Origin: Escherichia phage YDC107_1
Length of the DNA stretch: 46,701 nucleotides
Sequence record: CP025712.1
Reading direction: 5' to 3' (one strand)
Position numbers and translations under genes: made by a program. This document shows positions 8,372 through 34,649 of this stretch, piece after piece (within the stretch, counting starts at the first letter, position 1; each line of letters begins with the position of its first letter). The notes beneath the pieces are model-generated. The model saw nothing but the letters and a program-made list of their open reading frames with translations, was not told the origin of the DNA and ran no database searches.

Positions 8372-8767
8372 TCACATTTCATAGGTAATGACATAAGTCA
8401 GATCGGCTGAACTCCACAGGCCCGCATCATCGTCGCGCCGGTAGTCATAGCCACTGGCCACCATACTGGTGATCAAATCTGACAGTGCCGGGATATCGCT
8501 CATCACCGGATAAATCCGGGACTCCATCCACGAATCCAGCTCTGAATCCGGCACCTGAGCAGGCAGGAAAACTTCAATATGCAGCTCCGCCTGCCAGGTA
8601 TCGCTGTCCAGCTCTTCGCCCGTGTATTCAGCGCCGGTGAGATAAACGGCAATTGCCGGAAAATCTTCCTCATCAAAAACAGCGGGGCGACCATCAAAAA
8701 GCGTCGCCCCGGTGTCATGCTTCTCCAGTGCATCCAGTACGGCTGCACGGAGTTCAGTATGTTTCAT
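8372..8767 (-). CDS. U: Tail terminator protein U
   Basis: 131 aa, lambda U-like, 7-bp gap to V. Confidence 0.9.
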
Positions 8768-9342: not shown

Positions 9343-9353
9343 ACATCCCCCTT

Positions 9354-9707: not shown

Positions 9708-9718
9708 AGCGCCTCCCG

Positions 9719-10117: not shown

Positions 10118-10158
10118 GGACTCCTCCACAGAGAGAAAATGGCCCCGAAGGGCCATGA

Positions 10159-11184: not shown

Positions 11185-11239
11185 AAAAAAATCCCGTAAA
11201 AAAAGCCGCACAGGCGGCCTTTAGTGATGAAGGGTCAGG

Positions 11240-11572
11240 TTAAACGATGCTGATTGCCGTTCCGGCAAACGCGGTCCGTTTTTTCGTCTCATCGCTGGCA
11301 GCCTCCGGCCAGAGCACATCCTCATAACGGAACGTGCCGGACTTGTAGAACGTCAGCGTGGTGCTGGTCTGGTCAGCAGCAACCGCAAGAATGCCAACGG
11401 CAGCACCGTCGGTGGTGCCATCCCACGCAACCAGCTTACGGGTGGAGGTGTCCAGCATCAGCGGGGTCATTGCAGGCGCTTTCGCACTCAATCCGCCGGG
11501 CGCGGTTGCGGTATGAGCCGGGTCACTGTTGCCCAGCGGCTGGTAATGGGTAAAGGTTTCTTTGCTCGTCAT
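11240..11572 (-). CDS. D: Head decoration protein D
   Basis: Lambda D-like from [12 protein letters not shown] (110 aa). Confidence 0.9.
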
Positions 11573-11581
11573 AAACATCCC

Positions 11582-12187
11582 TTACACTGGTGTATTCAGC
11601 AAATCGTTAACGGCATCAGATGCCGGGTTACCTGCAGCCAGCGGTGCCGGTGCACCCTGCATCAGACGATCCAGCGCAGTATCACTGCGCGCCTGTGCAC
11701 TCTGTGGTGCTGCGGCCAGAATGCGGCGGGCCGTTTCCACGGTCATTCCGGGGGTTTCTGCCAGAACGCGCGCCTGTTCTTCGCGTCCGTGAGCCTCATC
11801 ACAGTTGAGGATCCCCATAATGCGGCTGTTTTCTGCCGCAACCGCTGCGGTGATCTGCGCGTTCACGTCCGGCTGCGCCGCGCTGGCGTTTTCGCCCTCC
11901 GTCGCTTGCACCACGTCAGTAACGTCAGCCTGCGAAGCGGTGGCTGAAACAGTTGTTGATTGAGTCTCTTTGGTCATTCGCCCTCCTGAGAGACGGGATT
12001 TACGTGCATCCAGTGCATCACGCATGACGGTGATCGCATCGGTGCTGTTAACAAGTTCATCAGCCAGTCCGGCATCAATGGCCTCCTGACCGCTGTACAC
12101 TGCAGCCTCGGTATCCAGCACAGTCTGCACGGACAGGCCGGTATATGCCGACACCTTCTGCGCAAACATCTGGCGGGTTGCATCCAT
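11582..12187 (-). CDS. nu3: Scaffolding protein Nu3 (in-frame internal start within C)
   Basis: Internal Met MDATRQMFAQ gives the 201-aa C-terminal product, as for lambda Nu3. Confidence 0.7.
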   Translation of the reverse strand: MDATRQMFAQKVSAYTGLSVQTVLDTEAAVYSGQEAIDAGLADELVNSTDAITVMRDALDARKSRLSGGRMTKETQSTTVSATASQADVTDVVQATEGENASAAQPDVNAQITAAVAAENSRIMGILNCDEAHGREEQARVLAETPGMTVETARRILAAAPQSAQARSDTALDRLMQGAPAPLAAGNPASDAVNDLLNTPV

Positions 12188-12881
12188 CCGGGACTGCAGT
12201 GTCTCCCGGACGTCATCCGGAAGATGGCTGTAGGGGTTGCCATCCACCTTATGGCTGCCGCTGTAAATCAGCGTGATTTCCACGCCCTGTTTCTCCAGCG
12301 CAGCACCGTAATTACTGTGAGCCATCATGACGCCGATGGAGCCTGTCCGGGCGGTCTGCGTGACCAGACGCCGGGAGGCGGCGCTGGCAAGCAGCTGACC
12401 TGCACTGCAGTTCATGTCGTTGGCCAGCGCCCATACAGGTTTTATGTCACGCACGCGGGCGATGATGTCAGCGCAGTCAAATGCCCCCGCCACCATCCCG
12501 CCGGGCGTGTCCATATCGAGCAGAATGCCGTCCACCATCGGGTCGCTGGCAGCCTGTTGCAGACGGGCGATAATGCCGTTGTAACCGGTCATCCCCGAAT
12601 ACGGCTGCAGCGCCCGCGTCCGGCTGACCAGCGTGCCGGAAACCGGCAGCACGGCGATGCCGTTCATGACCTGATAACTGCGGGCCTGTCGTGGTCCGTC
12701 ATCATCACCGGATAACGCCAGCGTCGCGGGTGCCTCCGGGGCAGTCAGGCTGTCACCGGACACCGCATCTGTCAGGCGGCTGATCCCAAGCTGGCCTGCA
12801 AGCGCACAAAAGAAAACCCGCGCATAGGCGGGTTCAAGCATCAGCGGCTCATTAAAGGCCATGCTGGCAATATGCGGGAGA

Positions 12882-12901
<20 letters not shown>
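11582..12901 (-). CDS. C: Capsid assembly protease C
   Basis: Lambda C-like from a GTG start (V)TAELRNLPHIASMAF, 439 aa; ClpP/S49-like fold. Confidence 0.88.
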
Positions 12902-16582
<3,681 letters not shown>

Positions 16583-16608
<26 letters not shown>

Positions 16609-17128
16609 TCAGCAACCCCGGTATCAGTTCATCCAGCGCGGCTGCTTTGTTCATGGCTTTGATGATATCCCGTTTCAGGAAATCAATGTGCCGGTTATCC
16701 AGCTCAGGAAAACGTCGCTGCACCGACAGAGGAATACCGTCGAGAATACTGGATATTTCCCTTGCTATACGCGACAGCACGAAAGTACAGAATGCGGTTT
16801 CCACCACTTCAGCCGATTCTTTGGCATTTTTCAGTTCCTGCGCCGTCGCCTGAGCACGAGTCAGGCGATGGCGCTCAAATTCAAGTGTTCCGGGGTGAAG
16901 ATCTGCCTCGCTGGCCAGCCGTAATTCTTCAACCTCCCGGCGCAGCTTTTCGTTCTCAATTTCAGCATCCCTTTCGGCATACCATTTTATGACGGCGGCA
17001 GAGTCATAAAGCACCTCATTACCCTTGCCACCGCCTCGCAGAACGGGCATTCCCTGCTCCTGCCAGTTCTGAATGGTACGGATACTCGCACCGAAAATGT
17101 CAGCCAGCTGCTTTTTGTTGACTTCCAT
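16583..17128 (-). CDS. nu1: Terminase small subunit Nu1
   Basis: 181 aa lambda Nu1-like with N-terminal HTH (MEVNKKQLADIFGASIRTIQNWQEQGMPV); 26-bp overlap with A. Confidence 0.9.
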
Positions 17129-17312
17129 TGTTCATTCCACGGACAAAAACAGAGAAAGGAAACGACAGAGGCCAAAAGGCCTGTTTTCAGCACCTGTCGT
17201 TTCCTTTCTTTTCAGGGGGTGTTTTAAATAAAAACATTAAGTTACGGAGAAGAAGAACGGAAACGCCTTAAACCGGAAAATTTTCATAAATAGCGAAAAC
17301 CCGCGCGCCTTC
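17129..17312 (-). other. cos site (cosB upstream of Nu1 plus cosN)
   Basis: Reverse complement of 17129-17290 matches the lambda left-end cosB sequence as I recall it. Cohesive-end equivalent at 17296-17307 reads GGGCGGAAGGCG on the minus strand versus lambda GGGCGGCGACCT. Confidence 0.75.
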
Positions 17313-17390
17313 CGCCCCGTAGCCTGCCGGATCGCCGGAAAGGACCCGCAAAGGTGAGAATAATTATCACTTGCATTAATATCCAGCTTC

Positions 17391-17559
17391 TTCCACCATC
17401 GCACCGGACGGGCGACTATGAGGGACAAAACCGCGCACCATAAACGCGGTAAAAACCCGGTGTGCATCGTTTTTGATTATTTCCGCACACTCGCGCAGAA
17501 GGAATTCCCCGTCGGGCTACGGTCATGGTTAATGCGGAAATACGGCGACGATGCAGCGC
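17391..17559. repeat. Direct repeat copy A (about 169 bp), partner at 18341..18509
   Basis: Shared …CATGAGGGACAAA…CGGTAAAAACCCGGTGTGCATCGTTTTTGATTATTTCCGCACACTCGCGCAGA…TTCCCCGTCGGGCTACGGTCATGGTTAATGCGGAAATACGGCGACGATGCAGCGC with a few mismatches. Confidence 0.85.
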
Positions 17560-17679
17560 ATGATGTGTCAGGCTTGAATACCTTTATCCGTTAAAAGGGA
17601 TATCAGTTAAGTTATCCCGTGCAGGGTATAAGCCATTATCAAAGCCACTCAGTAGCGAATGGCTTTTGTAATGGACTAT

Positions 17680-18276
17680 TTAATTAGTGATGCTGCGTGG
17701 CTTCATACAAATTTCAGAAATATGATTCTTTTCGTCCAAATGATGCTGGACATCATTTTTATCATCACTCAACAACTCTGCTGTTAATACAATCCCTGCT
17801 GTCTCAGATTTCCAGGAAATGCTGATATCCTGATCATCTGCATCAACATCATATTTTATCGAGTAAGGACTAAAGCTACGTCCAACGAACGCATCATTTA
17901 CCAGTACACGCCCACCCTGTCTGACCTGAAAGTCAACGCGCCCTGAAAGCTGATTTGCTGTTACAAGCAATGCCTTTTTTCTTTTTGTTTTATTGCTCAT
18001 TGCCACCAACTGTTCAGCCATCTCTCTTGTCACACTACCAGAAACTCTTTCTTGAATTTTCACAGAAAATTTTCTGGATGTAGTAGCATCGACATTAAAA
18101 AATCTGGATGTCATCAGGCAGTTATTAACAATTGGCATCAGCTCACTTACGATTGTAAAAAATTCCCGGTAAAGCTCATTTTGCTTTTCAACACACAGCT
18201 TTCCACAATCGTCCAGCTTACGCTCAAGAGCACTTAATCTTTCCATTATTGAATTAATTTTTTGCAACTCTTTCAT
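17680..18276 (-). CDS. Hypothetical protein (AT-rich moron between lysis genes and cos)
   Basis: 198 aa from MKELQKINSIMERLSALERK with a strong SD (GGAGG) upstream. The ORF-track start at 18537 (MRPWSH…) is a GTG inside a palindrome and probably not used. No family recognised. Confidence 0.6.
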   Translation of the reverse strand: MKELQKINSIMERLSALERKLDDCGKLCVEKQNELYREFFTIVSELMPIVNNCLMTSRFFNVDATTSRKFSVKIQERVSGSVTREMAEQLVAMSNKTKRKKALLVTANQLSGRVDFQVRQGGRVLVNDAFVGRSFSPYSIKYDVDADDQDISISWKSETAGIVLTAELLSDDKNDVQHHLDEKNHISEICMKPRSITN

Positions 18277-18299
18277 CAAAACCTCCTGACAAAGATACC

Positions 18300-18317
18300 G
18301 TGCGACCACGGTCGCAC
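18300..18317. repeat. 18-bp palindrome GTGCGACCACGGTCGCAC (candidate SopB-type centromere or protein-binding site), copy 1
   Basis: Perfect palindrome just upstream of the moron gene start. Confidence 0.6.
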
Positions 18318-18340
18318 GCTCCTGAATACATGCCCTGTTT

Positions 18341-18509
18341 CTTCCACCCTCGCACAGGACTGGCGAGCATGAGGGACAAACCCGCGAATCATTAGCGCGG
18401 TAAAAACCCGGTGTGCATCGTTTTTGATTATTTCCGCACACTCGCGCAGAGGAGTTCCCCGTCGGGCTACGGTCATGGTTAATGCGGAAATACGGCGACG
18501 ATGCAGCGC
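18341..18509. repeat. Direct repeat copy B (partner of 17391..17559)
   Basis: See copy A; together they bracket the 17680..18276 gene. Confidence 0.85.
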
Positions 18510-18519
18510 GGTATTTAAT

Positions 18520-18537
18520 GTGCGACCACGGTCGCAC
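18520..18537. repeat. 18-bp palindrome GTGCGACCACGGTCGCAC, copy 2
   Basis: Intergenic, between the DUF4406-like gene and direct repeat B. Confidence 0.6.
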
Positions 18538-18556
18538 ACGAGAAACAAAGAGATTT

Positions 18557-18868
18557 TTATGCTACAGAGGAACAAGCTGGCGGGTAATTCAGCGTAGTGA
18601 ATACCGGCATCTCCATCTTGTATGCGTAATGATACTCAGCAGTTGCTCCAGCAGACGCTTTCCAGCCAGGAAGCATCAAAATAGCATCAGCACAACGAAG
18701 CATTGCAAAGCAAATATCCATGTATTCACGTTGTGTCAGACCATTAGGCAAAGTGGCTGGATTCAAGACAGAGTGACCATGTCGTGACAAACGATCTGCC
18801 TCTTTATTAAAGGCGTCACGATTAAAGTTCTCATATCCAGTCATTGGCCCGGCAATATAAATTTTCAT
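18557..18868 (-). CDS. DUF4406-like small protein (nucleoside deoxyribosyltransferase-like fold)
   Basis: 103 aa, MKIYIAGPMTGYENFNRDAF… N-terminus typical of that family as I recall; function unknown. Confidence 0.5.
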   Translation of the reverse strand: MKIYIAGPMTGYENFNRDAFNKEADRLSRHGHSVLNPATLPNGLTQREYMDICFAMLRCADAILMLPGWKASAGATAEYHYAYKMEMPVFTTLNYPPACSSVA

Positions 18869-18909
18869 TCACTATCCAACAAATTGAGTTCGTTTTTGAT
18901 ACAGAGGGA

Positions 18910-19377
18910 TTAATTCGGGCATTGCGTCTTGATGTATTCCTGAAGCGTTCTCAGTGCTGTCTGGTCTCTGATGATTCCGTCCCGGATACCGAGAACGTTT
19001 CGTCCAGCAACTGGAGAGAGTTCGACGGTGGCATCATTGCCCATGCCGGAGGCGCTGGAGGTTTCGGCTGAGGATGGCACAGAGCATTTTCCTTTGACGA
19101 GCACCCGACCACCATTATCAAGCTTGCGCCGAAGAGCATCATTTTCAGCTTTCGCATCAGCCAACTCCTTCGTGTATTTTGCATCGAGCGCAGCAACATC
19201 ACGCTGACGCTGCTGCATGTCAGCGATGGTGGCGGTCGCCTGCTTCAGCTCACTGACTTTTTTATCACGCTGTTCTTTGTAGGCGATGGCGTTATCACGG
19301 TAATGATTAACAGCCCACGACAGGCAGACGATGATGCAGATAACCAGTGCGGAGATAATTGCGGTTACTCTGCTCAT
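18910..19377 (-). CDS. Rz: Spanin inner-membrane subunit Rz
   Basis: Lambda Rz-like N-terminus [30 protein letters not shown], coiled-coil periplasmic domain. Confidence 0.85.
18951..19157 (-). CDS. Rz1: Spanin outer-membrane lipoprotein Rz1 (embedded in Rz, +1 frame)
   Basis: [21 protein letters not shown] lipobox followed by a Pro-rich segment. Confidence 0.7.
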
Positions 19378-19874
19378 TGCTGCCCCCACAAACAGACTTC
19401 ACGCTCAATCTCACGGCGAGTCATCAGCCCTTTCCATTGCTTACCGCCAGCATATGTCCAGCGACGTAGTTGATCACATGCACCTTTGATATCGCCCTGG
19501 TTGATTTTGCGAAGAAGTGTCGATGTTCTGAAATTGCCTGCACCCACGTTGTAAACGAACGAGTAAAGAGCACCACGCGTTGTTTCCGGTATATCGACTT
19601 TGATGTACGGGTTAATTTGTCTGGCGACAGTAGCAAGGTCTTTATTCAGGAGAGCTTTGCATTCTGCTTCGGTATACGTTTTACCGAGCATAATGTCTTT
19701 TCCTGTATGCCCGTAACATACAGTCCATACACCAACGATGTCTTTGTAGGGGTTATGTCTCACACCTTCCAGACCATCGTTGCCGCTCGGACCAGAGATG
19801 AGCACAGATGCTATGGCAATAGCCCCGCCACCAATAGCAGTTGCGACAGCTTTGCGTAATGATGACTGCATCAT
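19374..19874 (-). CDS. R: SAR endolysin (T4-type lysozyme, phage 21 R-like)
   Basis: 166 aa; N-terminal SAR segment [16 protein letters not shown] then lysozyme domain; close to P21 R as I recall. Confidence 0.88.
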
Positions 19875-21823: not shown

Positions 21824-22063
21824 TCAATCTTGAAACTGGAAATCAACATCAGCCATAAAGCGGTTCAACTCAGCCAGTTTTGGCCCCATAGTCCCAACTA
21901 AGCGACCAGCCAGTCGGTCTGCCAGGTTGGTACTGTTGAAACCATATTCCTTTTCGAAACGTTCAACCTTCTGCCACAACTCATACAGTTCGTTAGCTAT
22001 CTCCGCAACGTCGTCGCGCATTTTTTCGTTACCTTGATAATTCATAATATCCTCCAAATTCAT
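21824..22063 (-). CDS. Hypothetical small protein
   Basis: 79-aa ORF; no family recognised. Confidence 0.45.
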   Translation of the reverse strand: MNLEDIMNYQGNEKMRDDVAEIANELYELWQKVERFEKEYGFNSTNLADRLAGRLVGTMGPKLAELNRFMADVDFQFQD

Positions 22064-22210
22064 ATAGTTAGTGGGTTATTGCCCCTCAATGACACGAACT
22101 GTAACTCTGCCAAACGAACACATCCAGTGTTATTTTTCACTTTTTAGTGAAATTTTTAATTTGCGCTTTTTTCTTGTTTTGGTGTATTTTATGGCTATGG
22201 AGGCTATAAT

Positions 22211-22522
22211 ATGTTTAACGTGATAACCCACCCTGCAGCACTGGATGAACTGCTTGAACTACCAGATGATTTGCGAGGTCGCATGACCAGATTAATTGAG
22301 CGACTGGAGAAGGAAGGCAACAAACTGAAGATGCCCCATAGCCGTGTAATAGGTGGAGGGCTTTTTGAACTACGAGTAGGGGATAAAAACATCGCAAGAA
22401 CGCTGTACGCCTACGCGACTGGTAACGAAATTTATCTATTGCATGCATTTGTAAAAAAGACACAGAAAACACCGGTGAAGGCTATCGAAATCGCCAGAAC
22501 TCGCCTGAAGGAGATGAACTGA
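22211..22522 (+). CDS. Type II toxin, HigB / Gp49-like (RelE/ParE superfamily)
   Basis: 103 aa with …GGGLFELRVGDKNIARTLYAYATGNEIYLLHAFVKKTQKTP… typical of Gp49/HigB; SD GGAGG; upstream palindrome TTTCACTTTTTAGTGAAA at 22135-22152 is a candidate operator. Confidence 0.8.
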   Translation: MFNVITHPAALDELLELPDDLRGRMTRLIERLEKEGNKLKMPHSRVIGGGLFELRVGDKNIARTLYAYATGNEIYLLHAFVKKTQKTPVKAIEIARTRLKEMN

Positions 22523-22809
22523 TGAAAGCGAAAGGCATCCCGTTTAACGAAGTAAAAGAAAAACTTCTCAACACTCCAGAAGCCATCAAAGGATATGAAG
22601 AGGCCGATAAAGAGCTGGAGATGGTCGAAATGTTATACGAAATGAGGGAAAGAGCAGGTTTAACGAAATCAGCTCTGGCTGAACGAATGGGGTTGCGACC
22701 GTCAGCCATCAGCCGCCTGGAAAGCAATCCTTTAGGGGCAAGTATGAAAACTTTGGCTAAATATGCTCATGCCTGCGGCGCAACCATCGATATTCGCGCT
22801 GTTTATTAA
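22522..22809 (+). CDS. HigA-like HTH (XRE family) antitoxin
   Basis: 95 aa, HTH LTKSALAERMGLRPSAISRLE; start overlaps toxin stop (ATGA). Confidence 0.8.
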   Translation: MKAKGIPFNEVKEKLLNTPEAIKGYEEADKELEMVEMLYEMRERAGLTKSALAERMGLRPSAISRLESNPLGASMKTLAKYAHACGATIDIRAVY

Positions 22810-22851
22810 TTAGACTCTTTTACTACCCCGTCCAGAAGGGCGGGGTGTGCA

Positions 22852-23055
22852 TCAATGATGTGAACGCTCAACAGCGATAGTTTTCTGACAATGCTGGGCA
22901 ATCTCTCGCGACATGTTGATGAGTCGTGAAACCTCACCAATATGTAGGCTGGCTTCTGGAGAAGCCAGGGTGACGCTAACCAGATCCAGAACGGCGTCAA
23001 TATCTCTCAAATTTGAATCGAGTTGTTCAAGAGTTGATACGGCTGCTTCAGACAT
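22852..23055 (-). CDS. Hypothetical small protein
   Basis: 67-aa ORF, weak RBS. Confidence 0.3.
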   Translation of the reverse strand: MSEAAVSTLEQLDSNLRDIDAVLDLVSVTLASPEASLHIGEVSRLINMSREIAQHCQKTIAVERSHH

Positions 23056-26233: not shown

Positions 26234-26876
26234 TTAATAATGCGGTTCGATTTAAGCTCAGACATCGCGACTTAATTAAAAGCCAGCGTTCTTTATAATC
26301 TTGTCTCCAGCTATCAATAGATATATTCAGTAGAAAACTCAGATGCCTGTCCTGTTCTCTCTCATCAACTGCCTCAGCACACGTAAGTTCTGATTTAACC
26401 TGTTGTGCCGCGTAATAAATCAATTTCCGCATGGCTTTTTTCGTGGAGGCCTTCATTTTTTTAAAGCCGCCCCCCGAATGAGCAACCAGAAAATCAAGCC
26501 ATAACCACTGACAAACAATCACATCATTGTTGTAATCAGGCTTGCATCCGTAGCAATAATAAAGCCAGGCTGATTCCTCGTTATTCAACTGACCAATAGC
26601 CCTGCGCCAGCTGGCGCTCTGAAAATCAATATCAGTGAGCAACATTGATGATTGTTTAAATGTTTTCCCCTGATGGAATCTAACCGGCTCAGCAGGAACG
26701 GACACTTCGTATGAGTTATCATCCCCCACACTGATTGACCGGACTGGTTTATTGTTAAACCGTCCTGATCTACCGAGACGCATCTGCTCAAGCTGGACCT
26801 CCAGAATGCCACGCTGGCGATAATGAACATCAGCCAATGCCGTAGAGACGCAGCTGCGTATATACTCAAGCTCCAC
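26166..26876 (-). CDS. Hypothetical early protein directly downstream of cro (regulator or Q-like candidate)
   Basis: 236 aa from a GTG start with SD AAGGAG; contains CYGC…C cysteines; family not recognised. Confidence 0.5.
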   Translation of the reverse strand: MELEYIRSCVSTALADVHYRQRGILEVQLEQMRLGRSGRFNNKPVRSISVGDDNSYEVSVPAEPVRFHQGKTFKQSSMLLTDIDFQSASWRRAIGQLNNEESAWLYYCYGCKPDYNNDVIVCQWLWLDFLVAHSGGGFKKMKASTKKAMRKLIYYAAQQVKSELTCAEAVDEREQDRHLSFLLNISIDSWRQDYKERWLLIKSRCLSLNRTALLNAAEKRSEIIKRHRAGSAILPL

Positions 26877-27087
26877 GCTTACGACTCTCCTTAATCGACT
26901 GCTTTACCCGCCGAGTTGTAAAGTCACTCTTCAGCTTATAAGCAGTACGAACTTCAATATCGCTTTGCCGCAATGAAGGAATCTCTCCAGCGGTTAACCA
27001 TTGGTAAACAGCTCCGGGTGTTACACCTACCCCTGCCGCTGCTTTTTCTACACTGCCAAAATGGCGAATAAGTTCTTCTGGTTTCAT
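26866..27087 (-). CDS. cro: Cro-like HTH repressor
   Basis: 73 aa from MKPEELIRHFGSVEKAAAGVGVTPGAVYQWL; divergent from the repressor gene. Confidence 0.7.
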   Translation of the reverse strand: MKPEELIRHFGSVEKAAAGVGVTPGAVYQWLTAGEIPSLRQSDIEVRTAYKLKSDFTTRRVKQSIKESRKRGA

Positions 27088-27118
27088 GTTGTTATTATAA
27101 ACAATAAACAACAATTAA

Positions 27119-27156
27119 AGCCAGCTATAATAAATAAATTTTATAGCCAGCTATAA
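27119..27156. promoter_or_regulatory. Operator region between cro and cB: two AGCCAGCTATAA repeats
   Basis: Repeats at 27119-27130 and 27145-27156; the second lies in the near-palindrome TTATAGCCAGCTATAA; AT-rich promoter context. Confidence 0.5.
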
Positions 27157-27178
27157 GAAGATCATTTATGATTACAGT

Positions 27179-27775
27179 ATGAAAACACGAGGCGAACGAC
27201 TGAAAGCACGCCGTTTAGAGATGAAGCTGACGTTGCGAGAAGTTGCTGAGGCTGTCGATATCTCTATAGCAGGCGTCCAAAACTTAGAACGTGGCGACGT
27301 AATGCCGTCACTGGAGATAGGTATTGCCCTGGCTAAGTGCTTACGCAAGCCAGTGCATTGGGTGCTATATGGGACAGAATATGACCCTGATCGCATTCCT
27401 GTTATTGGCACAACTGAAAGTGGGCCGGATGAAGAGTGGAAGCCGGGACAGGTTCCAAATACTGAGCGATTCCTGCCATTCATCAGCCAGCGCAATACTG
27501 TGTATGCGTTAACTATCAGCAATCTTACGCAGGGAAACTATCAGCCAGGCGATTTTCTCCTGGTCGATTCTGCGCTGGAACTGGTCCCCGGCGAGGATGT
27601 TCTGGTTCGTGATACTGCAGGAAATATCACTATCCAGCGCCTGGCCCGTTTTGATGATGAAAATTACTATCTGGATGGAACAAACTCACAACGCGCCATC
27701 TTCAGGAAAAGCGATCTTGAATTTGTTCACCAAATAGTCGGAACGATCAAATCATTCATGGTTGAGGGTAGATGA
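27179..27775 (+). CDS. cB: Prophage repressor (N15 CB / lambda CI analogue): HTH plus degenerate LexA-like C-terminal domain
   Basis: 198 aa; N-terminal HTH LTLREVAEAVDISIAGVQNLERG. Confidence 0.8.
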   Translation: MKTRGERLKARRLEMKLTLREVAEAVDISIAGVQNLERGDVMPSLEIGIALAKCLRKPVHWVLYGTEYDPDRIPVIGTTESGPDEEWKPGQVPNTERFLPFISQRNTVYALTISNLTQGNYQPGDFLLVDSALELVPGEDVLVRDTAGNITIQRLARFDDENYYLDGTNSQRAIFRKSDLEFVHQIVGTIKSFMVEGR

Positions 27776-27869
27776 CTTAATACGGGGTTTATTGTTTGCT
27801 GTAAATCTGGTTTAATGCAGGGCATATGTTCTGTGGGTTGACTCAGGTTACAGCAGCAGAAAAAAGACG

Positions 27870-27905
27870 AAAAAAAACCCGAGTCGGCAAACTCGGGTCC
27901 TTTTC
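27870..27905. terminator. Bidirectional rho-independent terminator after the repressor gene
   Basis: A-run, CCCGAGT-CGGCAAA-ACTCGGG, then T-run. Confidence 0.5.
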
Positions 27906-28020
27906 AGGAAGCAGCCACAACAACGCGACAGATTCCGTCAATTCAAGATGCGTTTATTGTGGCTGCTCCTGCGGATTTTTTCAACCCGAAAAAACATAAT
28001 TCGCATGGAATGGCTAAAAA

Positions 28021-31000
28021 ATGACATTAAACGATTTCTATGCGGATCGCTTTGGCAGCGATCCGTTCTCGCTAATTGAAGCAGCACGGGATGAACTAAC
28101 CGAGCTGGCACAGATGGCTGGTATCAACTGGCCTGCCTGTTCCGACAACATCCAACTCAACCCTCGCGGGGGGGTTGAGCGTTACTCTTCATACAATAAA
28201 ACATCTCCAGAAGCTCTCGAAAAGAGCCTGAAAGGACGCGTAGAAATTTACTCCAGGCTGGAACACAGCAAAGGGATTGATTACCCGTTCATTAACTTCG
28301 TCCATAAAGGCAGCGATGCTGGCTCATGGAGCGGTTTCTCCTTCCTGTTTTCTGAATATCGCCGTGAGCAACAACGGAATAATGCGACCGTGGTCGCACA
28401 ACCGGAAGAAGAACGGGAAAGAATAGAACGTCAGGCCGAAGCACGTCGTCGCCGTGAAGAACAAAAACGAATTAATGACCTGAAAAACAACCAAATGGAC
28501 CATGAACGTTTGCTGGGATGGCTGGCATTCCACAGCGCGTGGGAACATGCTCAGGCTGAAGACGGCTCATGGCCATATGCGATTAAAAAAGGTATTCGTG
28601 ACGTTTTTAGTTCATGTGATGTGCGTCGCGTGACCAGTCACGACAGTGCGAAATGGAGCCGGGGGCCAACCACATATATGGCTATCCCTCTGGCTCACCT
28701 GGACGGTCGTTATGATGGTCGTATTGTGGGTTGGCAGCGAATCGACAAACAAGGTGGGAAATACCAGACCAGCGCAGTAACCAGCGGCGATTTCGTCGGT
28801 GCCTGCTTTGTTATCGGTGAGCTGAAAGGGGCGCAAAACATCGCTGTTACAGAAGGTTTTGCTACTGGTGCATCCATCTGGCTTGCCACGAAAAAAGATA
28901 AACGCTTTGACGCGGTGGTTGTCGCTGTATCCGCTAACAACATGGTTCATGTTGTGGAACAACTGGTAAACATGTACCCGGCGGCAAAAATCACCTGCGC
29001 ACTGGATAATGACCGGAAATCTGCCACAGAAGGAAAAGGGAATACCGGCCTGCGGACTGGCTATGAAATCTTATCGAAATTCAACGATGTCCGCTGCGTC
29101 TACCCAACTTTTGAAGACGATCCGCAAATGGAGTGCAGTGACTTCAACGACCTGCACAAACTACGTGGACTTCGTGAAACAGCACGTCAACTATTTGCAA
29201 CAGCAAACCGCCTGAAAACCGGCACTGATTTGCTATCTCTGACGCTCAACCGCCTGAAGACAATTAAGCGGGATAACCGTCGTACTTTTGCCAAAGAGCT
29301 GCTGAGAGCGGTGGATATTGGCATGCTAACCTGTCCGGTTCCTAACAGTCCGTCAGATTTGTTTAACATGTTCTGTATCGTTCTGCGTGAAATGGGGCTG
29401 GAAAATATCTATCGCGCTACGGTAAAAGACCACATTGCCCGTCGCCTGAATAAAAAATGCCGTATTGCCCAGGCTCCGCGCTCTTTCAGCGAACGCATAA
29501 CTGATCCCAATAAACGCCCTCAACATATCACCTATAAGCGTTTTGAAACTTCGGTAATGACCTATGACGTCCTGAAGTACGTGCAATCACTACAGGGGAT
29601 CGTCATCGTTCGTGCTGGTATGGGTTCCGGCAAATCTACTGGATTGTTACGACCGTTAATGCATAGCTCAGAACGCGGTATCTCTGTAGCTCACCGTGTT
29701 TCCCTTATTGGTGGCCTGTGGGAAATGATGACTGAAGGAAAAGGTGTAAAAGCCGATATCCTGCACTATCAGGACCCTGGCTATCAGGAAATGGCTCCAT
29801 ACGCCAGTAAACTGACCATCTGCATAAACTCGATTGTTAAAAACTGCTGGCAACCGTTGATGCGCCAGCACGACTATTTTGGCTTTGACGAGGCCACACA
29901 AGGGCTACGTGCCGTTCTTTCCGGTCGGGCTATGGAAAACCCAGTGGCTGTATTCAATACGCTAATTGACGCGCTGGCCAGAACGGAACAACACCCAATA
30001 ATGGTGGATGCTGATGCGAACGATCTGCTGGTTGACCTGGCTGAACTGGCTATGAAACGCCGTGAAGAACTAGGTTTACCGGCATGGCTGCAGATCCACG
30101 TAATTGAATTACCTGTTGATGTTCGCAACCGCGAAACAGGTGAGCCAATCCGGGTTTTTTATACAGAAAAAGATCGCATCATGACCGAGGTGGTGAAAGC
30201 TGTATCGGATGGCGAAAAAATCATGTTGGCCACCGACAGCTCCACCTTTGCAGAAGATGTGACCGCCACCCTGAGAATGCATTTTCCTGGTAAGAAATTT
30301 CTGTGCGTAAACCAGAAAAGCAAACAGGATGAAGAAGTCGATGCTTTTACCAACCAGCCAAAAGTAATGGTGATGAAATACGATGGACTGATCTACAGCC
30401 CGTCGATTTCCTCCGGGGTGTCATTTGAGAAAAAACATTTTGACCGTCATTTCGGCATGTTCTGCGGTGAAGTTGTGCCCAGCGACGCAGTGCAAATGCT
30501 ACGCCGCGACCGTACAGCAAAAGAATTTATTATCGGCTTTGATAAAGCTCGTGCAAAACGCGAGACTGATCCGCAAAAAATAGAACGTGCATTCGCCCAG
30601 GCATTACTTGCTACCGCAGGCATGAACGGTGAACTGACGGATGTCGTTTTCGATGGCGACCGTATATCAATGGGGGTGGCCAATACCGACTTTACCAGGA
30701 TGAAAATTAAAGCTGCCGCTATTGAAGCGTCTGCGCGTAACGACTACGCCAGCAACATGATCTGCATCATGCACAGCGACGGTTATAAGGTATCGCCATT
30801 AGCTACTGATTATGCCGCAAATGATTTTGGTAAAGAGCTGCGCAAAGAAGCGCGGGATATTGTGTGGGAACAGACGCTGGATCTGCACCTCAATACAGAG
30901 ACACCAGAAGAATCAGAGCGTGAAGAACTACTAAAAAAACGTGCGCTAACGCTTGAAGAACAGGCAAAACTTGTCCGCTGGGATATTGAGAACGAACTGA

Positions 31001-32004
31001 AACTACCGGTTGAAGAAGGCACGCTGAAATTCTATTTCGATGGTGCTCGAGACAAAATTCGCCGTTATGAAACGATGCTGCTTGATGAAGTCACAGCCCG
31101 TCGTTATGACCGTGAAGAAGCGGCTATCAATTTTACATACGCATACCGCCAGACCGGACAGTGGCAATATTTTGTGGTGACCGCGATGACACGCGAGCAG
31201 GCTGATGATGTATTCAAAGCGAAATTTCCGGGAATAATCGACTACAAGGTAAAAGCCACCCCAGCTGTTGAGGTCGGCATGCGCGGATTCTATGCGCTTA
31301 AATCAGCAACTCTCCGGCAGTATTTTATCGACTGCGGTATCGACCCTGAAACTATGACTGGCGAAGCGACGCAGGAACGCCTTAAGTTCGCTCGAGATAA
31401 TCTCATGACAGCAGAACGCCGTGACCTGTTGAATAACGTTCTGCGCATTGGTGGTTTTATGACACCAAAAGGGAAGCCTAAAGTGCCGGAAGCACTGTTT
31501 AAAAACATCTGCGACTCTCTCGGCCTAAAAACAGGAAAACGTCGCGGCAGAGATGGCGATAAGCGCCCGACATTGCGTTTTGTTGAGCCTGAGTCTGTAG
31601 CATTTATGCTTGATATTCTTACGCAACGTCAGGAGGACGGTATGACGTTGAAAGCTCGCAAGGCAGAAAAATCAACGACCGAAGTGGATCGCGATTTGTC
31701 ATTAAATATATATATGAATGGTGAAACGCGATCCACAAACACGGAGGAACAGGATCCCCCTCGTTCAGCTATATCACAGGCTTTGGCTGTATTGCCGGTG
31801 GCTGTTCCTGAGTCCTGGGCGATGAGTGCTCTGCCATCAGCCGAACTGGAATCTATCAGGGGGTGGTCAGTTGACAGCATCGCATACACGTTTGCAGCCC
31901 TTTATATGACTGAGTTTATGGATTTGCTGTCCGGTCATGAGATTAAGTTGCTGAAGGCTTTTATAGGCCCACGACATGCCAGCGATGAGTTTTGTGTAGT
32001 TTAG
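28021..32004 (+). CDS. repA: Replication protein: Toprim primase fused to a helicase/NTPase (N15 RepA / P4 alpha-like)
   Basis: 1327 aa; Toprim motifs (VTEGFATGASIW, ALDNDRKSATEGKG); Walker A GMGSGKST; Walker B-like FDEATQ. Confidence 0.9.
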   Translation: MTLNDFYADRFGSDPFSLIEAARDELTELAQMAGINWPACSDNIQLNPRGGVERYSSYNKTSPEALEKSLKGRVEIYSRLEHSKGIDYPFINFVHKGSDAGSWSGFSFLFSEYRREQQRNNATVVAQPEEERERIERQAEARRRREEQKRINDLKNNQMDHERLLGWLAFHSAWEHAQAEDGSWPYAIKKGIRDVFSSCDVRRVTSHDSAKWSRGPTTYMAIPLAHLDGRYDGRIVGWQRIDKQGGKYQTSAVTSGDFVGACFVIGELKGAQNIAVTEGFATGASIWLATKKDKRFDAVVVAVSANNMVHVVEQLVNMYPAAKITCALDNDRKSATEGKGNTGLRTGYEILSKFNDVRCVYPTFEDDPQMECSDFNDLHKLRGLRETARQLFATANRLKTGTDLLSLTLNRLKTIKRDNRRTFAKELLRAVDIGMLTCPVPNSPSDLFNMFCIVLREMGLENIYRATVKDHIARRLNKKCRIAQAPRSFSERITDPNKRPQHITYKRFETSVMTYDVLKYVQSLQGIVIVRAGMGSGKSTGLLRPLMHSSERGISVAHRVSLIGGLWEMMTEGKGVKADILHYQDPGYQEMAPYASKLTICINSIVKNCWQPLMRQHDYFGFDEATQGLRAVLSGRAMENPVAVFNTLIDALARTEQHPIMVDADANDLLVDLAELAMKRREELGLPAWLQIHVIELPVDVRNRETGEPIRVFYTEKDRIMTEVVKAVSDGEKIMLATDSSTFAEDVTATLRMHFPGKKFLCVNQKSKQDEEVDAFTNQPKVMVMKYDGLIYSPSISSGVSFEKKHFDRHFGMFCGEVVPSDAVQMLRRDRTAKEFIIGFDKARAKRETDPQKIERAFAQALLATAGMNGELTDVVFDGDRISMGVANTDFTRMKIKAAAIEASARNDYASNMICIMHSDGYKVSPLATDYAANDFGKELRKEARDIVWEQTLDLHLNTETPEESEREELLKKRALTLEEQAKLVRWDIENELKLPVEEGTLKFYFDGARDKIRRYETMLLDEVTARRYDREEAAINFTYAYRQTGQWQYFVVTAMTREQADDVFKAKFPGIIDYKVKATPAVEVGMRGFYALKSATLRQYFIDCGIDPETMTGEATQERLKFARDNLMTAERRDLLNNVLRIGGFMTPKGKPKVPEALFKNICDSLGLKTGKRRGRDGDKRPTLRFVEPESVAFMLDILTQRQEDGMTLKARKAEKSTTEVDRDLSLNIYMNGETRSTNTEEQDPPRSAISQALAVLPVAVPESWAMSALPSAELESIRGWSVDSIAYTFAALYMTEFMDLLSGHEIKLLKAFIGPRHASDEFCVV
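28383..28398. repeat. 16-bp core TGCGACCGTGGTCGCA, copy 5, inside repA
   Basis: Outer bases not complementary (16 of 18); mirrored copy at 45080-45097. Confidence 0.5.
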
Positions 32005-32021
32005 AGGGTAGAAGCGTGGGA

Positions 32022-32288
32022 ATGATGCAAGAGTGCCTCGTTTTGATTGAAGGGTATGATCCGTATGTTGTTAACGTCAGCAGAATGGATACTGGCTATA
32101 GCGACTACAAAACTGGTCGTGAACTGCCGTTCACCATCATCAGGATGAATAGCTTTGGCGATGATGATGCTGTTTATTGCTGTATAGCCAGCGATAAAAA
32201 CATGGAAGACCGGACAGATGAAGCCCGTATGCTATTGAGGAAATATAAGGTAAAGCCGTTATCAGAGAATAACGCTGAGAGGGGTTAA
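32022..32288 (+). CDS. Hypothetical protein
   Basis: From ATG MMQECLVLIEGYDP (ORF-track start 31992 is TTG). Confidence 0.45.
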   Translation: MMQECLVLIEGYDPYVVNVSRMDTGYSDYKTGRELPFTIIRMNSFGDDDAVYCCIASDKNMEDRTDEARMLLRKYKVKPLSENNAERG

Positions 32289-32290
32289 AA

Positions 32291-32686
32291 ATGGCAGTTC
32301 AATCATACAAATACGAATCCCCTTTGGATAAGGGATACATTCGTATCAAGTTAAGTCGTTCTCAGCATAAGGCTATTTTTAAGGTAAGGAAAATTCGCAT
32401 ATTGGATGCGTATGCGTATTACTACAACGGTGAAAATGTTGTTGTTGAACACTTTCTTGCACGATGGTTTGTAGCTCTGATTTTTGTCCCTCTCCTGTTA
32501 ATTGGTACTTTTGTGGATGGTTTTCCTAGTACATGGCGGGAGATAAAGAAAGGCCTATTCCCGCGTAAGTACGGCAGATTTTCGCAAGATAGCTGGCGAG
32601 TTATACCTGGTAAACATTCTGTGGATGAGCAGCCGATTGTTGATTACTGGTTGAAGCATATGGCTGATGCTAAAAAAGTTGATTGA
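32291..32686 (+). CDS. Hypothetical membrane protein
   Basis: 131 aa with SD GAGAGGGG; TM segment WFVALIFVPLLLIGTFV. Confidence 0.5.
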   Translation: MAVQSYKYESPLDKGYIRIKLSRSQHKAIFKVRKIRILDAYAYYYNGENVVVEHFLARWFVALIFVPLLLIGTFVDGFPSTWREIKKGLFPRKYGRFSQDSWRVIPGKHSVDEQPIVDYWLKHMADAKKVD

Positions 32687-32704
32687 GTTGTGGAAGGAGT
32701 ATTT

Positions 32705-32929
32705 ATGAACTGTAACAAAAATGAAGAAACTCGCCTGGTTTGGACGGTAGTAATCGGAGATAAAGAGGGCGGTGAAGAGCCTCATTTTGATTATTCTGTG
32801 GCTTTGCAGGCTCTCATCCTTGAAGCGCAGAGATACCAACAAGAGATGCAGAAGAACCCTCAACTGGAACCTCGACCAATTGGCCTATTCTGCGAGCGAG
32901 TATCAGCGGCGGAACTCCCTGATATCTGA
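32705..32929 (+). CDS. Hypothetical small acidic protein
   Basis: MNCNKNEETRLVWTVVIG…; SD GGAAGGA. Confidence 0.45.
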   Translation: MNCNKNEETRLVWTVVIGDKEGGEEPHFDYSVALQALILEAQRYQQEMQKNPQLEPRPIGLFCERVSAAELPDI

Positions 32930-33120
32930 TGCCCTCCAACAGCTGATCAGGTTCTGATCAGTTAGTAAAGCAAACTATAAAAACACCTGTCCCCGTGACT
33001 GGTCACGGGGTAAAATGTCTTTGCAAATTATTGACGTGTGCGTCGTTTTGACGGTAAAGTTACTTCGCTGCGGTAAATCCCGTAGCCGGGACTCTCAACC
33101 CCGAAATCCGAACGACGCAC

Positions 33121-33143
33121 AACACGCGCCAGCGTGTTTTTTT
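33121..33143 (+). terminator. Rho-independent terminator ending a short untranslated transcript upstream of the anti-repressor operon
   Basis: AACACGC-GCCA-GCGTGTT followed by a T-run. Confidence 0.45.
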
Positions 33144-33309
33144 GTGTGTATGAGCCTGCGCATATCCGAATTATGGTGGCTCAGGTGGGGCAGCCGAAAG
33201 GCTGGCCGGTGTCGTTTGGGCCGGTGTTGAGAACCCCGCTTGGGCTACCACCCCATAGAGATTCTCAACTCTGGTGGTAGCACTGTTTTACCAAACAAGA
33301 GTGCATACC

Positions 33310-33474
33310 ATGTTCAAATTCAAATTTGCGGCAGTCGTTCGCACAGACAAAAAGTCACACATCCATCATCTTTCCACCATCGCGTCATCTGAACGGGAAG
33401 CTCGTCGCCAGTTCGCCAGCCGGTTTGTCCTGGTATTGTCTGCCCGTATTCCGGTGCGCGAGGTGGCTGCATGA
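33310..33474 (+). CDS. Small protein, first gene of the anti-repressor operon (Icd-like position)
   Basis: 54 aa from MFKFKFAAVVRTDKK. Confidence 0.35.
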   Translation: MFKFKFAAVVRTDKKSHIHHLSTIASSEREARRQFASRFVLVLSARIPVREVAA

Positions 33475-33704
33475 ATCAGGTAAAAATGAACACTGTTGGC
33501 CTGCTGGAATCGTTGGATGAACGTCTGGCTCAGGTCTATGCGCTTGTGTCATCAGCCCATCGTACAGTCTCCAGTTGTGAGGCGTCGATTTATCTCTCAG
33601 AAGCCGGGAAGCTCCTTCAAATCGCGTGTGAGTTGACACACAAAGCACAGGGGTATTCAGCATCTCTCTCGTCGCAATTGCAGCACAATAAGGAGGCCAA
33701 ATGA
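33471..33704 (+). CDS. Hypothetical protein (anti-repressor operon)
   Basis: 77 aa, SD GAGGTGG, ATGA-coupled to neighbours. Confidence 0.45.
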   Translation: MNQVKMNTVGLLESLDERLAQVYALVSSAHRTVSSCEASIYLSEAGKLLQIACELTHKAQGYSASLSSQLQHNKEAK

Positions 33705-34477: not shown

Positions 34478-34649
34478 GGTTGGCCAGCCCGAATTGATGC
34501 CCTTCTTAGTGAGGGGAAGCCTCGCAGTCTGGGCGGTGATGTCTGTGGTTGCAGCCGCGTTTCCTCCGTTACTTCTGCCCTTTGCAGGGGGCAGGCGAGG
34601 CAGGCCACATAACAAGGCACCGATTAATTCGGTGCCTTTAACGTATGCT

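Follow-up and report, generated by a model that had tools for sequence, protein, structure and literature searches.

What is a pair of small genes doing on the + strand of a phage-plasmid at a point where all neighbouring long open reading frames lie on the − strand? The window analysed here, the whole stretch of 46,701 nucleotides, belongs to the N15-like linear phage-plasmids: it carries a Q antiterminator, a replication gene of the N15 type, a protelomerase of the four-domain TelK/TelN type and an N15-like telomere (tel) palindrome; judged by these genes and sites, the carrier of the pair is a non-integrating linear plasmid-prophage. The pair has the early-right genes on one flank and the gp50/gp51-late region on the other, and its transcription runs counter to that of the phage genes. 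Synteny with N15 is identical, orthologues of gp51 and gp50 flanking the pair at one end and those of gp47 and gp46 at the other, each of them on the strand opposite to the pair, and the intergenic region between the pair and the divergent gp50 orthologue is conserved. At this locus Escherichia phage PhiR46_1 (PV340565) is 99.8% identical to the window. The features on which the argument depends are these:

22135–22152, no strand: perfect inverted repeat TTTCACT-tttt-AGTGAAA, candidate operator, starting 76 nt upstream of the toxin ATG
22161–22190, + strand: putative sigma-70 promoter, proposed from sequence, with −35 TTGCGC at 22161–66 and −10 TATTTT at 22185–90 or TGTATT at 22183–88
22199–22203, + strand: Shine-Dalgarno GGAGG for the toxin, 7 nt before its ATG, invariant in 7 loci
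22211–22522, + strand: toxin gene, 103 aa, orthologue of N15 gp49 (by Pfam PF05973 and identity to N15 gp49)
22509–22513, + strand: Shine-Dalgarno AGGAG for the antitoxin, within the 3′ end of the toxin gene, conserved in all loci
22522–22809, + strand: antitoxin gene, 95 aa, orthologue of N15 gp48 (by HTH_3 and identity to N15 gp48)
22821–22849, no strand: GC-rich stem-loop, from RNA folding, in the 42 nt that separate the antitoxin stop from that of the convergent gene
22852–23055, − strand: convergent gene downstream of the antitoxin, its stop 42 nt from the antitoxin stop

The pair is very probably the gp49-gp48 (tad-ata, Gp49-type HigBA) type II toxin-antitoxin cassette, stabilising the N15-like linear phage-plasmid that carries it; no result of the analysis contradicts this reading. 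The module is already known and published, with the N15 locus as its archetype, and is not a new find. Its first product matches the Pfam Gp49 model PF05973 over the whole profile (positions 1–90 of 90) with an E-value of 2.5e-29 and a score of 101.6 bits, where the cut-off is 23.9, and is 92% identical to N15 gp49 over its full length and 91% identical to phiKO2 Gp49. On this sequence evidence it is a member of the Gp49/Tad/HigB family within the RelE/ParE superfamily. At E-values up to 0.01 PF05973 is its only Pfam match, the classical HigB models PF05015 (HigB-like) and PF09907 (HigB) giving none, so that "HigB-like" describes the architecture and superfamily of the toxin and not membership of the HigB Pfam families. 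No NCBIfam model matches it, and its RefSeq product name is already "type II toxin-antitoxin system RelE/ParE family toxin". The second product matches Pfam HTH_3 (PF01381) at residues 38–90 (E 1.6e-12, 47.7 bits against a cut-off of 23), which places an XRE-type helix-turn-helix at residues ~36–92, and the N-terminal ~35 residues presumably bind the toxin. It is 86% identical to N15 gp48 over its full length and 81% identical to phiKO2 Gp48, resembles the solved HigA2 (7ewc) and Streptococcus pneumoniae HigA (6af3_B, E 7.9e-3), and in the NCBIfam search found only generic HTH families with scores below the cut-off.

The initial annotation had proposed a toxin-first pair, on the strand opposite to its neighbours, of a Gp49/HigB-like toxin and an XRE-HTH antitoxin, and had suggested a Pfam search for PF05973 plus an HTH model; the two open reading frames lie as it described them, both models match, and the first protein does fall in a toxin family. 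Its "1-bp ATGA overlap" was half right. The toxin stop TGA (22520–22522) and the antitoxin ATG (22522–24) share exactly one base, in the sequence cTGATGa, and the motif is thus TGATG and not ATGA; the four-base ATGA form of the overlap is present in phiKO2 and in a Salmonella relative. The order is toxin-first and bicistronic, each gene having its own Shine-Dalgarno sequence. The initial annotation did not recognise the pair as the archetype N15 locus.

It is therefore informative to set the window beside N15 (NC_001901, genes 49 and 48). The two share gene order, sizes (103 and 95 aa), the one-base overlap, flanking genes, strand arrangement, the distance of the upstream palindrome and the setting of a linear plasmid-prophage with a protelomerase. 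They differ by 8 substitutions in the toxin and 13 in the antitoxin, in the toxin stop codon (TGA in the window, TAA in N15) and in the spacer downstream of the antitoxin (42 nt against about 380 nt). At the toxin gene dS between them is about 1.5, with synonymous sites close to saturation, and N15 is absent from a megablast search of the cassette region because DNA identity is too low. Full-length identity and synteny mark the pair as orthologous to a system of this group that has been validated by experiment. Passages that cite Dziewit et al. 2007 describe N15 gp49-gp48 as a plasmid-stabilising toxin-antitoxin system (PMC2701414, PMC3581621, PMC5906591, PMC4553209), one of them treating the module as validated (PMC5906591), and the title of that paper itself (J Bacteriol 189:1983; PMC1855756) states the stabilisation role of the N15 cassette. 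The N15 pair is one of the tad-ata-type cassettes tested in that study, and N15 gp49 is the source of the name of Pfam PF05973.

By homology, the toxin would act as a ribosome-dependent mRNA endonuclease, cleaving at codons that occupy the A site of the ribosome. The PF_gp49 family is listed among ribosome-dependent mRNases with toxin-first gene order (PMC11980606), and A-site mRNA cleavage on translating ribosomes has been shown for Mycobacterium tuberculosis HigB(TAC) (PMC9098466). With residue numbering from the latter source, 8 of the 9 proposed catalytic-pocket positions of HigB(TAC) are identical or conservative in the toxin in a HMMER alignment: R45, E53, R55 and N60 align with K58, E66, R68 and N73, and F80, K82, Q85 and K86 with F93, K95, Q98 and K99. 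The ninth, R77, is the exception: the toxin has T64 there, and its closest arginine (R63) is one column off. Likewise, E53, R55, F80 and K82 align with E66, R68, F90 and K92 of S. pneumoniae HigB (numbering from PMC7984235). The toxin shares with S. pneumoniae HigBA and with the ribosome-bound M. tuberculosis HigB(TAC) (7NBU) the motifs ELR and F-x-K-x-x-Q-K-T-P, which carry proposed catalytic residues. A single-sequence AlphaFold2 model of the toxin is poor (mean pLDDT 45.3) and too uncertain for a fold search; its order of elements, H-H-E-E-E-E-H, agrees with the RelE-like fold described for Gp49-like toxins, in which N-terminal helices are followed by a four-stranded antiparallel sheet and a long C-terminal helix (PMC9098466), and such a long C-terminal helix is predicted, at low confidence, in the window toxin. 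Indirect support for a RelE-like fold comes from similarity to solved HigB chains, namely S. pneumoniae HigB (6af3_A, E 5.5e-5) and M. tuberculosis HigB1 (7nbu). Both window proteins match the two chains of 6AF3 (S. pneumoniae HigBA, 6AF3/6AF4), although sequence similarity to the solved Gp49-type HigBA systems is low and those systems lie on chromosomes, whereas the window cassette is on a phage-plasmid. The M. tuberculosis TAC module furthermore has a SecB-like chaperone; neither a gene of this kind nor another sensor gene was found adjoining the window pair in the ORF list and Pfam search.

Upstream of the toxin, the perfect inverted repeat at 22135–22152 extends to 10-nt arms with one mismatch over 22132–22155. 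Its core, TTTCAC-N6-GTGAAA, is the sole match in the window at up to 1 mismatch, where about 0.16 matches are expected by chance in the whole window, and a chance match inside the ~150-nt leader is therefore very unlikely. The form TTTCAY-N6-RTGAAA occurs once per locus, 76–78 nt upstream of the toxin ATG, in 8/8 fetched loci with an intact toxin, and in the copies on IncF plasmids both arms change symmetrically (C>T and G>A, turning TTTCAC/GTGAAA into TTTCAT/ATGAAA). HigA antitoxins from this family recognise palindromic sites within the promoters of their own operons (PMC7984235). The palindrome is a putative operator, to be bound by the antitoxin either alone or in complex with the toxin, much as the initial annotation had suggested; the 22135 at which that annotation starts its region is the first base of the repeat, which proves perfect and conserved across loci. 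The case for a sigma-70 promoter at 22161–22190 is a weak one. Seven loci retain the TTG of its −35 as well as a T(A/G)TATTT box, and a degenerate second copy of the operator box (22168–22190; direct repeat D1, 74% identical to the palindrome box) overlaps it. Over the 150 nt that precede the toxin the standard promoter scan returned nothing, the only relaxed-scan match being an alternative promoter with an extended −10, TGtTATTTT (22128–22136), that overlaps the left arm of the palindrome; neither scan found a promoter of consensus quality. A standard-scan promoter at 22041–22068 (TTCATA-16-TATAGT) was set aside, as it overlaps the start of the gp50 orthologue and lies outside the cassette shared with IncF plasmids. 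No internal promoter for the antitoxin was detected in a relaxed scan of 22060–22530; Dziewit and colleagues reportedly found one in 2007.

Within this framework, the antitoxin would bind and neutralise the toxin through its N-terminal part, and the HTH domains of an antitoxin dimer would bind the TTTCAC-N6-GTGAAA dyad next to the promoter and so repress the operon, both steps being modelled on homologous systems. On the model published for the N15 orthologue, the antitoxin is presumably the shorter-lived of the two proteins, so that cells that lose the low-copy, non-integrated linear prophage would be left with free toxin and would be killed or arrested; such post-segregational killing would stabilise the plasmid-prophage alongside its partition system. 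The initial annotation had raised plasmid-prophage maintenance on a non-integrated element: the element is indeed a linear plasmid-prophage with a protelomerase and a tel palindrome, and the maintenance role has been published for the 92%- and 86%-identical N15 proteins, from which it may be carried over by analogy. Among 5,426 complete E. coli genomes there were 16 matches to the cassette, all on plasmids and none chromosomal, which gives indirect support to plasmid stabilisation. A related cassette of SXT, s044/s045, stabilised a test plasmid, but its deletion did not raise SXT loss (PMC2654960), and maintenance of the native prophage by the cassette is for this reason not guaranteed.

The selective history of the two genes and the chemistry of the toxin bear on whether the pair is a working mRNase-based module at all. 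With N15, phiKO2, Enterobacter and IncF copies as the comparison set, and dS above 0.9, dN/dS is 0.02–0.04 for the toxin gene and about 0.05–0.06 for the antitoxin gene; the Salmonella copy was left out, since indels make the ungapped comparison invalid. Both genes are, by this measure, under strong purifying selection. Such ratios, with synonymous sites near saturation and both open reading frames intact, make it very unlikely that the pair is a non-toxic or decayed relic in which the HTH protein would be no more than a transcription regulator, with the Gp49 protein for co-repressor; N15 gp49, 92% identical to the window toxin, was moreover reported by Dziewit and colleagues in 2007 to be toxic in E. 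coli and to be neutralised by its cognate antitoxin. Such a state has been proposed for HigB2 and HigB3 of M. tuberculosis, Gp49-family proteins of the same Pfam family that are not toxic and are without key residues (PMC9098466), and decay does occur in this lineage, where many IncF plasmids have a truncated antitoxin fragment beside an IS30 element. However, the window toxin has the residues that HigB2 and HigB3 lack: R45, N60, F80 and K86 stand at the positions equivalent to K58, N73, F93 and K99. There is an equally slight probability that the toxin poisons DNA gyrase in the manner of ParE, or has some other non-ribosomal target, a reading favoured by the generic RefSeq name "RelE/ParE family toxin" and by the lack, as far as we know, of a biochemically determined target for N15 gp49. 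The superfamily does include gyrase poisons (PMC11980606), yet the Pfam match is to PF05973 and not to ParE (PF05016), the closest solved relatives are HigB mRNases, the basic and aromatic residues of the RNase pocket are conserved (numbering from PMC9098466 and PMC7984235), and PF_gp49 toxins are listed as ribosome-dependent mRNases (PMC11980606). The palindrome has its own rival interpretation, namely an RNA hairpin or terminator, or part of the promoter architecture, instead of an operator. In the N15 GenBank record this site bears the label "putative rho-indep. transcription terminator", its RNA has a folding energy of −8.5 kcal/mol (z −3.3) with a U-rich tract directly behind it, and the symmetric arm change would preserve an RNA stem as well as a dyad for protein binding. 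Nonetheless, the stem has only 7 pairs, mostly A-U with 2 G-C, and the terminator scan did not call it; the repeat keeps to a fixed 76–78 nt ahead of the toxin gene, on its strand, and travels with the cassette into IncF plasmids of unrelated upstream context; a terminator directly ahead of the operon's own RBS and promoter would have no obvious function; and binding to dyads of this kind is documented for HigA-type antitoxins (PMC7984235, PMC11980606). We therefore give the hairpin only a small chance.

A different question is whether a working module serves mainly for addiction. There is a small but appreciable chance that its main role is anti-phage defence, by abortive infection or superinfection exclusion, in which infection would deplete or displace the antitoxin and free the mRNase. 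A Gp49-family HigB in an E. coli toxin-antitoxin-chaperone module triggers abortive infection on sensing a lambda tail protein (PMC11980606), and, like many defence genes, the cassette is exchanged as one block, here between phage-plasmids and IncF plasmids. PADLOC returned weak, partial matches, of toxin residues 43–95 to NsnC (E 2.6e-7) and of the antitoxin HTH to several defence HTH models, but no complete system, and these matches involve generic domains only (for NsnC, profile positions 229–282 of 293). Against defence there also stand the want of a SecB-like chaperone or sensor gene beside the pair, the documentation of the N15 orthologue as a stabilisation system and the plasmid location of all E. 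coli copies, which fits addiction. The two roles are compatible with each other. Because of its position, its counter-flow transcription and the divergent intergenic region that it shares with the gp50 orthologue, the cassette might also be a switch or defence element, releasing toxin in superinfection or failed induction, or co-regulating the divergent gp50-gp51 through the dyad. The single occurrence of the operator motif in the window and the missing sensor or chaperone gene count against this, and we think it unlikely; if true, it would mean that the cassette does more than addiction in N15-like phage-plasmids.

As a probable stabilisation cassette, the pair has several well-described counterparts. 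The tad-ata pair of Paracoccus aminophilus pAMI2, the Tad-Ata archetype (a COG4679/DUF891 toxin with a COG5606/COG1396 XRE antitoxin), has the same architecture, protein families and toxin-first order (PMC2701414, PMC3832669); it is distant from the window pair and is likened to it here by published description, and validated Gp49-domain toxins of different subgroups show only about 20% identity (PMC5906591). The classical HigBA systems (Rts1, Vibrio cholerae HigBA-1 and E. coli K-12) have toxins of PF05015 and PF09907, unlike the window toxin, and share with the window pair the toxin-first order, an XRE-HTH antitoxin, a RelE-fold mRNase (predicted in the window), plasmid stabilisation and autoregulation through promoter palindromes (both putative in the window) (PMC11980606). 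In the passages that describe it (PMC12977533, PMC4553209), phd-doc of P1 is likewise an addiction module of a non-integrating plasmid-prophage, although its proteins are unrelated (a Fic/Doc kinase toxin), its antitoxin comes first and its mechanism is different.

The cassette is common to N15-like phage-plasmids of Escherichia, Klebsiella, Enterobacter and Salmonella and to IncF conjugative plasmids. In the IncF cassettes homology is confined to the stretch from the palindrome through the antitoxin stop, the BLAST match beginning at 22134, and this marks the boundaries of a portable module, delimited as the 18-bp dyad to the antitoxin stop; many IncF plasmids retain only a truncated antitoxin fragment adjoining an IS30 element. 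This sharing is a tidy example of the exchange of maintenance modules between phage-plasmids and plasmids. As a discovery the locus is of small interest, given the 2007 publication and a RefSeq label that already reads type II toxin-antitoxin.

Two minor features flank the genes. The RNA of 22805–22860 folds at −19.8 kcal/mol (z −3.4), and the stem-loop within it at 22821–22849, missed by the terminator scan, has no U-run and so does not qualify as a canonical intrinsic terminator; its possible roles are to impede transcription or to stabilise an RNA end. On the other side, a 45-aa open reading frame of PhiR46_1 (window ~22089–22223, + strand), upstream of and overlapping the toxin start, was rejected as a gene because it spans the operator and promoter leader and because its frame is interrupted by single-base indels in the comparison with N15 and phiKO2. 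In the same PhiR46_1 record (PV340565) both cassette genes are still labelled "hypothetical protein", and a practical use of the present assignment is that these labels can be corrected.

The two genes examined here are the gp49–gp48 toxin-antitoxin module of phage N15, already known and characterised, in a close relative of N15. Two plus-strand ORFs lie between 22064 and 22851, and all neighbouring long ORFs lie on the minus strand, so that the initial annotation was right to place a two-ORF pair opposite to its neighbours:

22199–22203, plus strand, ribosome-binding site GGAGG of ORF1, a good match
22211–22522, plus strand, ORF1, the toxin gene (103 aa)
22509–22513, plus strand, ribosome-binding site AGGAG of ORF2, a good match
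22522–22809, plus strand, ORF2, the antitoxin gene (95 aa)

The toxin stop TGA (22520–22522) and the antitoxin ATG (22522–22524) have one base in common, in the context cTGATGa. Hence the 1-bp overlap described earlier stands, but not ATGA as its motif; a 4-base ATGA junction is present in the phiKO2 and Salmonella relatives.

ORF1 matches Pfam PF05973 (Gp49, DUF891) end to end (E 2.5e-29; 101.6 bits, cut-off 23.9), and ORF2 matches HTH_3 (E 1.6e-12) as well as further XRE-type HTH models. N15 gp49 is the namesake of the Pfam "Gp49" family. The Pfam matches agree with the proposal of a Gp49/HigB-like toxin with an XRE-HTH antitoxin, which is confirmed as an observation, and its interpretation in terms of plasmid-prophage maintenance is supported. 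The PHROGs families are phrog_2523 (ORF1) and phrog_1373 (ORF2); an NCBIfam search of both proteins found nothing specific, and PADLOC models gave only partial, domain-level matches to them. The nearest solved structures to the toxin are Streptococcus pneumoniae HigB (6af3_A, E 5.5e-5) and Mycobacterium tuberculosis HigB1, the HigB(TAC) of a toxin-antitoxin-chaperone module (7nbu, 7awk), while the antitoxin matches HipB, HigA2 (7ewc) and 6af3_B, the partner chain of 6af3_A.

By the features that it carries, the window is an N15-type linear plasmid-prophage, and it also encodes a CI/CB-like HTH repressor and a Q antiterminator:

28021–32004, large replication gene, with a DNA match to N15/phiKO2 regions annotated 'replication' (N15 gene 37)
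34650–36551, minus strand, four-domain protelomerase of the TelK/TelN type, an N15-type feature
axis between 36742 and 36743, N15 telO-like palindrome, CCCATTATACGCG meeting CGCGTATAATGGG

Over a 2-kb region, DNA identity is 99.8% to Escherichia phage PhiR46_1 and 75.6% to Klebsiella phage phiKO2. ORF1 shares 92% of its residues with N15 gp49 and 91% with phiKO2 Gp49; for ORF2, identity to the respective gp48 proteins is 86% and 81%. The window shares its gene arrangement about the pair, strands included, with N15, phiKO2 and PhiR46_1: the pair is flanked on one side by gp51 and gp50 orthologues, on the other by those of gp47 and gp46, and all of these run opposite to it. The RefSeq product for the N15, phiKO2 and E. 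coli plasmid copies of the toxin is "type II toxin-antitoxin system RelE/ParE family toxin"; in the PhiR46_1 record both genes are still labelled "hypothetical protein". The literature names "the gp49-gp48 locus of the E. coli N15 prophage", with the toxin 5′ of an HTH-Xre antitoxin (PMC3581621), lists N15 with temperate phages bearing toxin-antitoxin systems (PMC4553209), and, for the validated GP49-domain modules, which include the Tad toxins, gives a toxin-first order throughout (PMC5906591).

Both genes are under purifying selection. Synonymous sites have diverged strongly from those of N15, phiKO2, one Enterobacter phage-plasmid and two IncF plasmid copies (dS 0.9 to >2, saturated in several comparisons), non-synonymous divergence is just 0.03–0.12, and dN/dS, where computable, is 0.02–0.06 for both genes. 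The catalytic residues are likewise conserved. In a HMMER alignment read with the residue numbering of PMC9098466, the proposed catalytic and mRNA-contact residues K58, E66, R68, N73, F93, K95, Q98 and K99 of HigB(TAC) correspond to R45, E53, R55, N60, F80, K82, Q85 and K86, respectively, of the window toxin, and R77 to T64 (R63 is adjacent); E66, R68, F90 and K92 of S. pneumoniae HigB (PMC7984235) fall on E53, R55, F80 and K82. The non-toxic HigB2 and HigB3 are without K58, N73, F93 and K99 (PMC9098466), all of which have counterparts here. In a very uncertain single-sequence AlphaFold2 model of the toxin (pLDDT 45), the order of helices and strands fits the description of a Gp49-like HigB.

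The purifying selection and the intact catalytic residues make it unlikely that the pair is a non-toxic relic. A ParE-like gyrase poison is also unlikely in view of the toxin's Pfam family and of the solved structures nearest to it. The PF_gp49 family (PF05973; gp49, tad, HigB1, HigB3) comprises ribosome-dependent mRNA-degrading toxins of toxin-first modules (Gerdes 2025 survey, PMC11980606), and by analogy with its homologues the toxin would cleave A-site mRNA in a ribosome-dependent manner, the N-terminal region of the antitoxin would neutralise it, and the operon would be autorepressed at the upstream dyad. An anti-phage role by abortive infection is possible and compatible with addiction: a Gp49-family HigB of a toxin-antitoxin-chaperone module works in this way (PMC11980606), although no chaperone or sensor gene is present here and the PADLOC search gave no system match. 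For addiction itself, the N15 literature and what is generally known of type II systems suggest that cells losing the prophage would be killed or arrested because the antitoxin is probably less stable than the toxin. The key paper on the N15 cassette is that of Dziewit et al., cited by Makarova et al. and in PMC3581621, PMC5906591, PMC4553209 and PMC11980606. That study is reported to have found that the N15 cassette made heterologous replicons stable, that its toxin had a bactericidal effect on E. coli, and that a second promoter, internal to the cassettes, served the antitoxin. A caution for the maintenance role comes from the related s044/s045 cassette of SXT, which made a test plasmid stable, yet whose deletion did not increase SXT loss (PMC2654960).

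The distribution of the pair fits a role in killing or arrest upon plasmid loss: a search of 5,426 complete E. coli genomes gave 16 matches, all on plasmid records of ~36–75 kb and none chromosomal. Related sequence is present on 608 PLSDB plasmids, some of them non-mobilisable and N15-like, others conjugative and of IncF type. Homology to the IncF cassettes (BLAST, 82–83% identity) runs from 22134 to 22807–22811, a span that opens with the palindrome and closes at the antitoxin stop, and the flanks are unrelated to the window (IS elements in one plasmid; IncFII repA on one side and def on the other in a second), which makes the dyad part of the portable unit. Many large IncF plasmids (for example NZ_CP022731.1) hold just a fragment, 82.7% identical to window 22502–22732, in which the toxin gene is lost, IS30 is found upstream and the frame of the antitoxin diverges beyond '...LESNP'. 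Such cassettes have decayed, each leaving an orphan truncated antitoxin beside the tsh virulence gene.

The feature reported by the initial annotation starts at 22135, where a perfect inverted repeat, TTTCACT-tttt-AGTGAAA (22135–22152), also begins; this repeat matches its upstream palindromic operator candidate. The 46.7-kb window has no second TTTCAC-N6-GTGAAA site with one mismatch allowed (~0.16 expected by chance window-wide). The dyad is conserved: TTTCAY-N6-RTGAAA occurs once per locus, always 76–78 nt 5′ of the toxin ATG, in 8/8 fetched loci with an intact cassette, and was not found in the single fetched locus with only an antitoxin remnant. The arms are TTTCAC/GTGAAA in the phage-plasmids and TTTCAT/ATGAAA in two IncF plasmids, a symmetric change in both arms. 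The N15 GenBank record annotates this site as a putative rho-independent terminator; however, its short stem is rich in A-U pairs (−8.5 kcal/mol), a terminator scan made no call, and the placement directly 5′ of an operon would be odd. A candidate operator for the dimeric HTH antitoxin appears to be the better reading, such binding having been shown for S. pneumoniae HigA/HigBA and E. coli HigA (PMC7984235, PMC11980606). The box recurs in degenerate form at 22168–22190 (74% identical), where it overlaps the likeliest −10 region. The operon promoter is uncertain, with two candidates:

22161–22190, TTGCGC-N16/18-T(G)TATTT, conserved in 7/7 aligned loci
22128–22136, extended −10 TGtTATTTT, reaching into the dyad's left arm

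Between the palindrome and the start of the minus-strand gp50 orthologue lie two blocks, CACGAACTGTAACTCTG and CACATCCAG (22090–22130), kept in N15, phiKO2 and the Enterobacter element and absent from the IncF cassettes. As the genes on either side are read divergently (gp50/gp51 to the left, toxin-antitoxin to the right), the blocks may be part of a gp50–gp51 promoter or regulatory site; no convincing sigma-70 match was found. A 45-aa 'hypothetical protein' of PhiR46_1 (XSB42763.1; window 22089–22223, plus strand) overlaps the leader and the toxin start and is probably a spurious call, because single-base indels in N15 and phiKO2 disrupt its frame.

The structural module (tail, head, terminase; 1–19864) shares 96–97% identity with numerous integrating lambdoid phages of Escherichia, including Kati, PhiR70_1 and mEp332, and N15-like elements are the sole matches (about 75%) to the replication/telomere arm; the element is therefore a mosaic of lambda-like virion and N15-like plasmid modules. 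The last ~9.96 kb (36743–46701) are an inverted copy of 26776–36742, 98–100% identical, about an axis exactly at the centre of the telO-like palindrome. The mirrored protelomerase (37493–38833) is shortened to 446 aa from 633 aa, and the register between the copies slips by single bases. This looks like a fold-back artefact of long-read assembly reading round a covalently closed hairpin telomere, a head-to-head replication intermediate being less likely; in the case of such an artefact, unique content would be only 1–36742 and the distal tail/sop arm would be missing.

In the 42-nt gap between the antitoxin gene and the convergent gp47-like gene (22852–23055, minus strand) there is a GC-rich hairpin at 22821–22849 (fold of 22805–22860: −19.8 kcal/mol, z −3.4; U-run on neither strand), a possible brake on antisense transcription running out of the early operon into the toxin-antitoxin genes. 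The 67-aa gp47-like protein matches phrog_6301, of unknown function, and more weakly the 'anti-repressor' PHROG phrog_10889 (E 6e-8).
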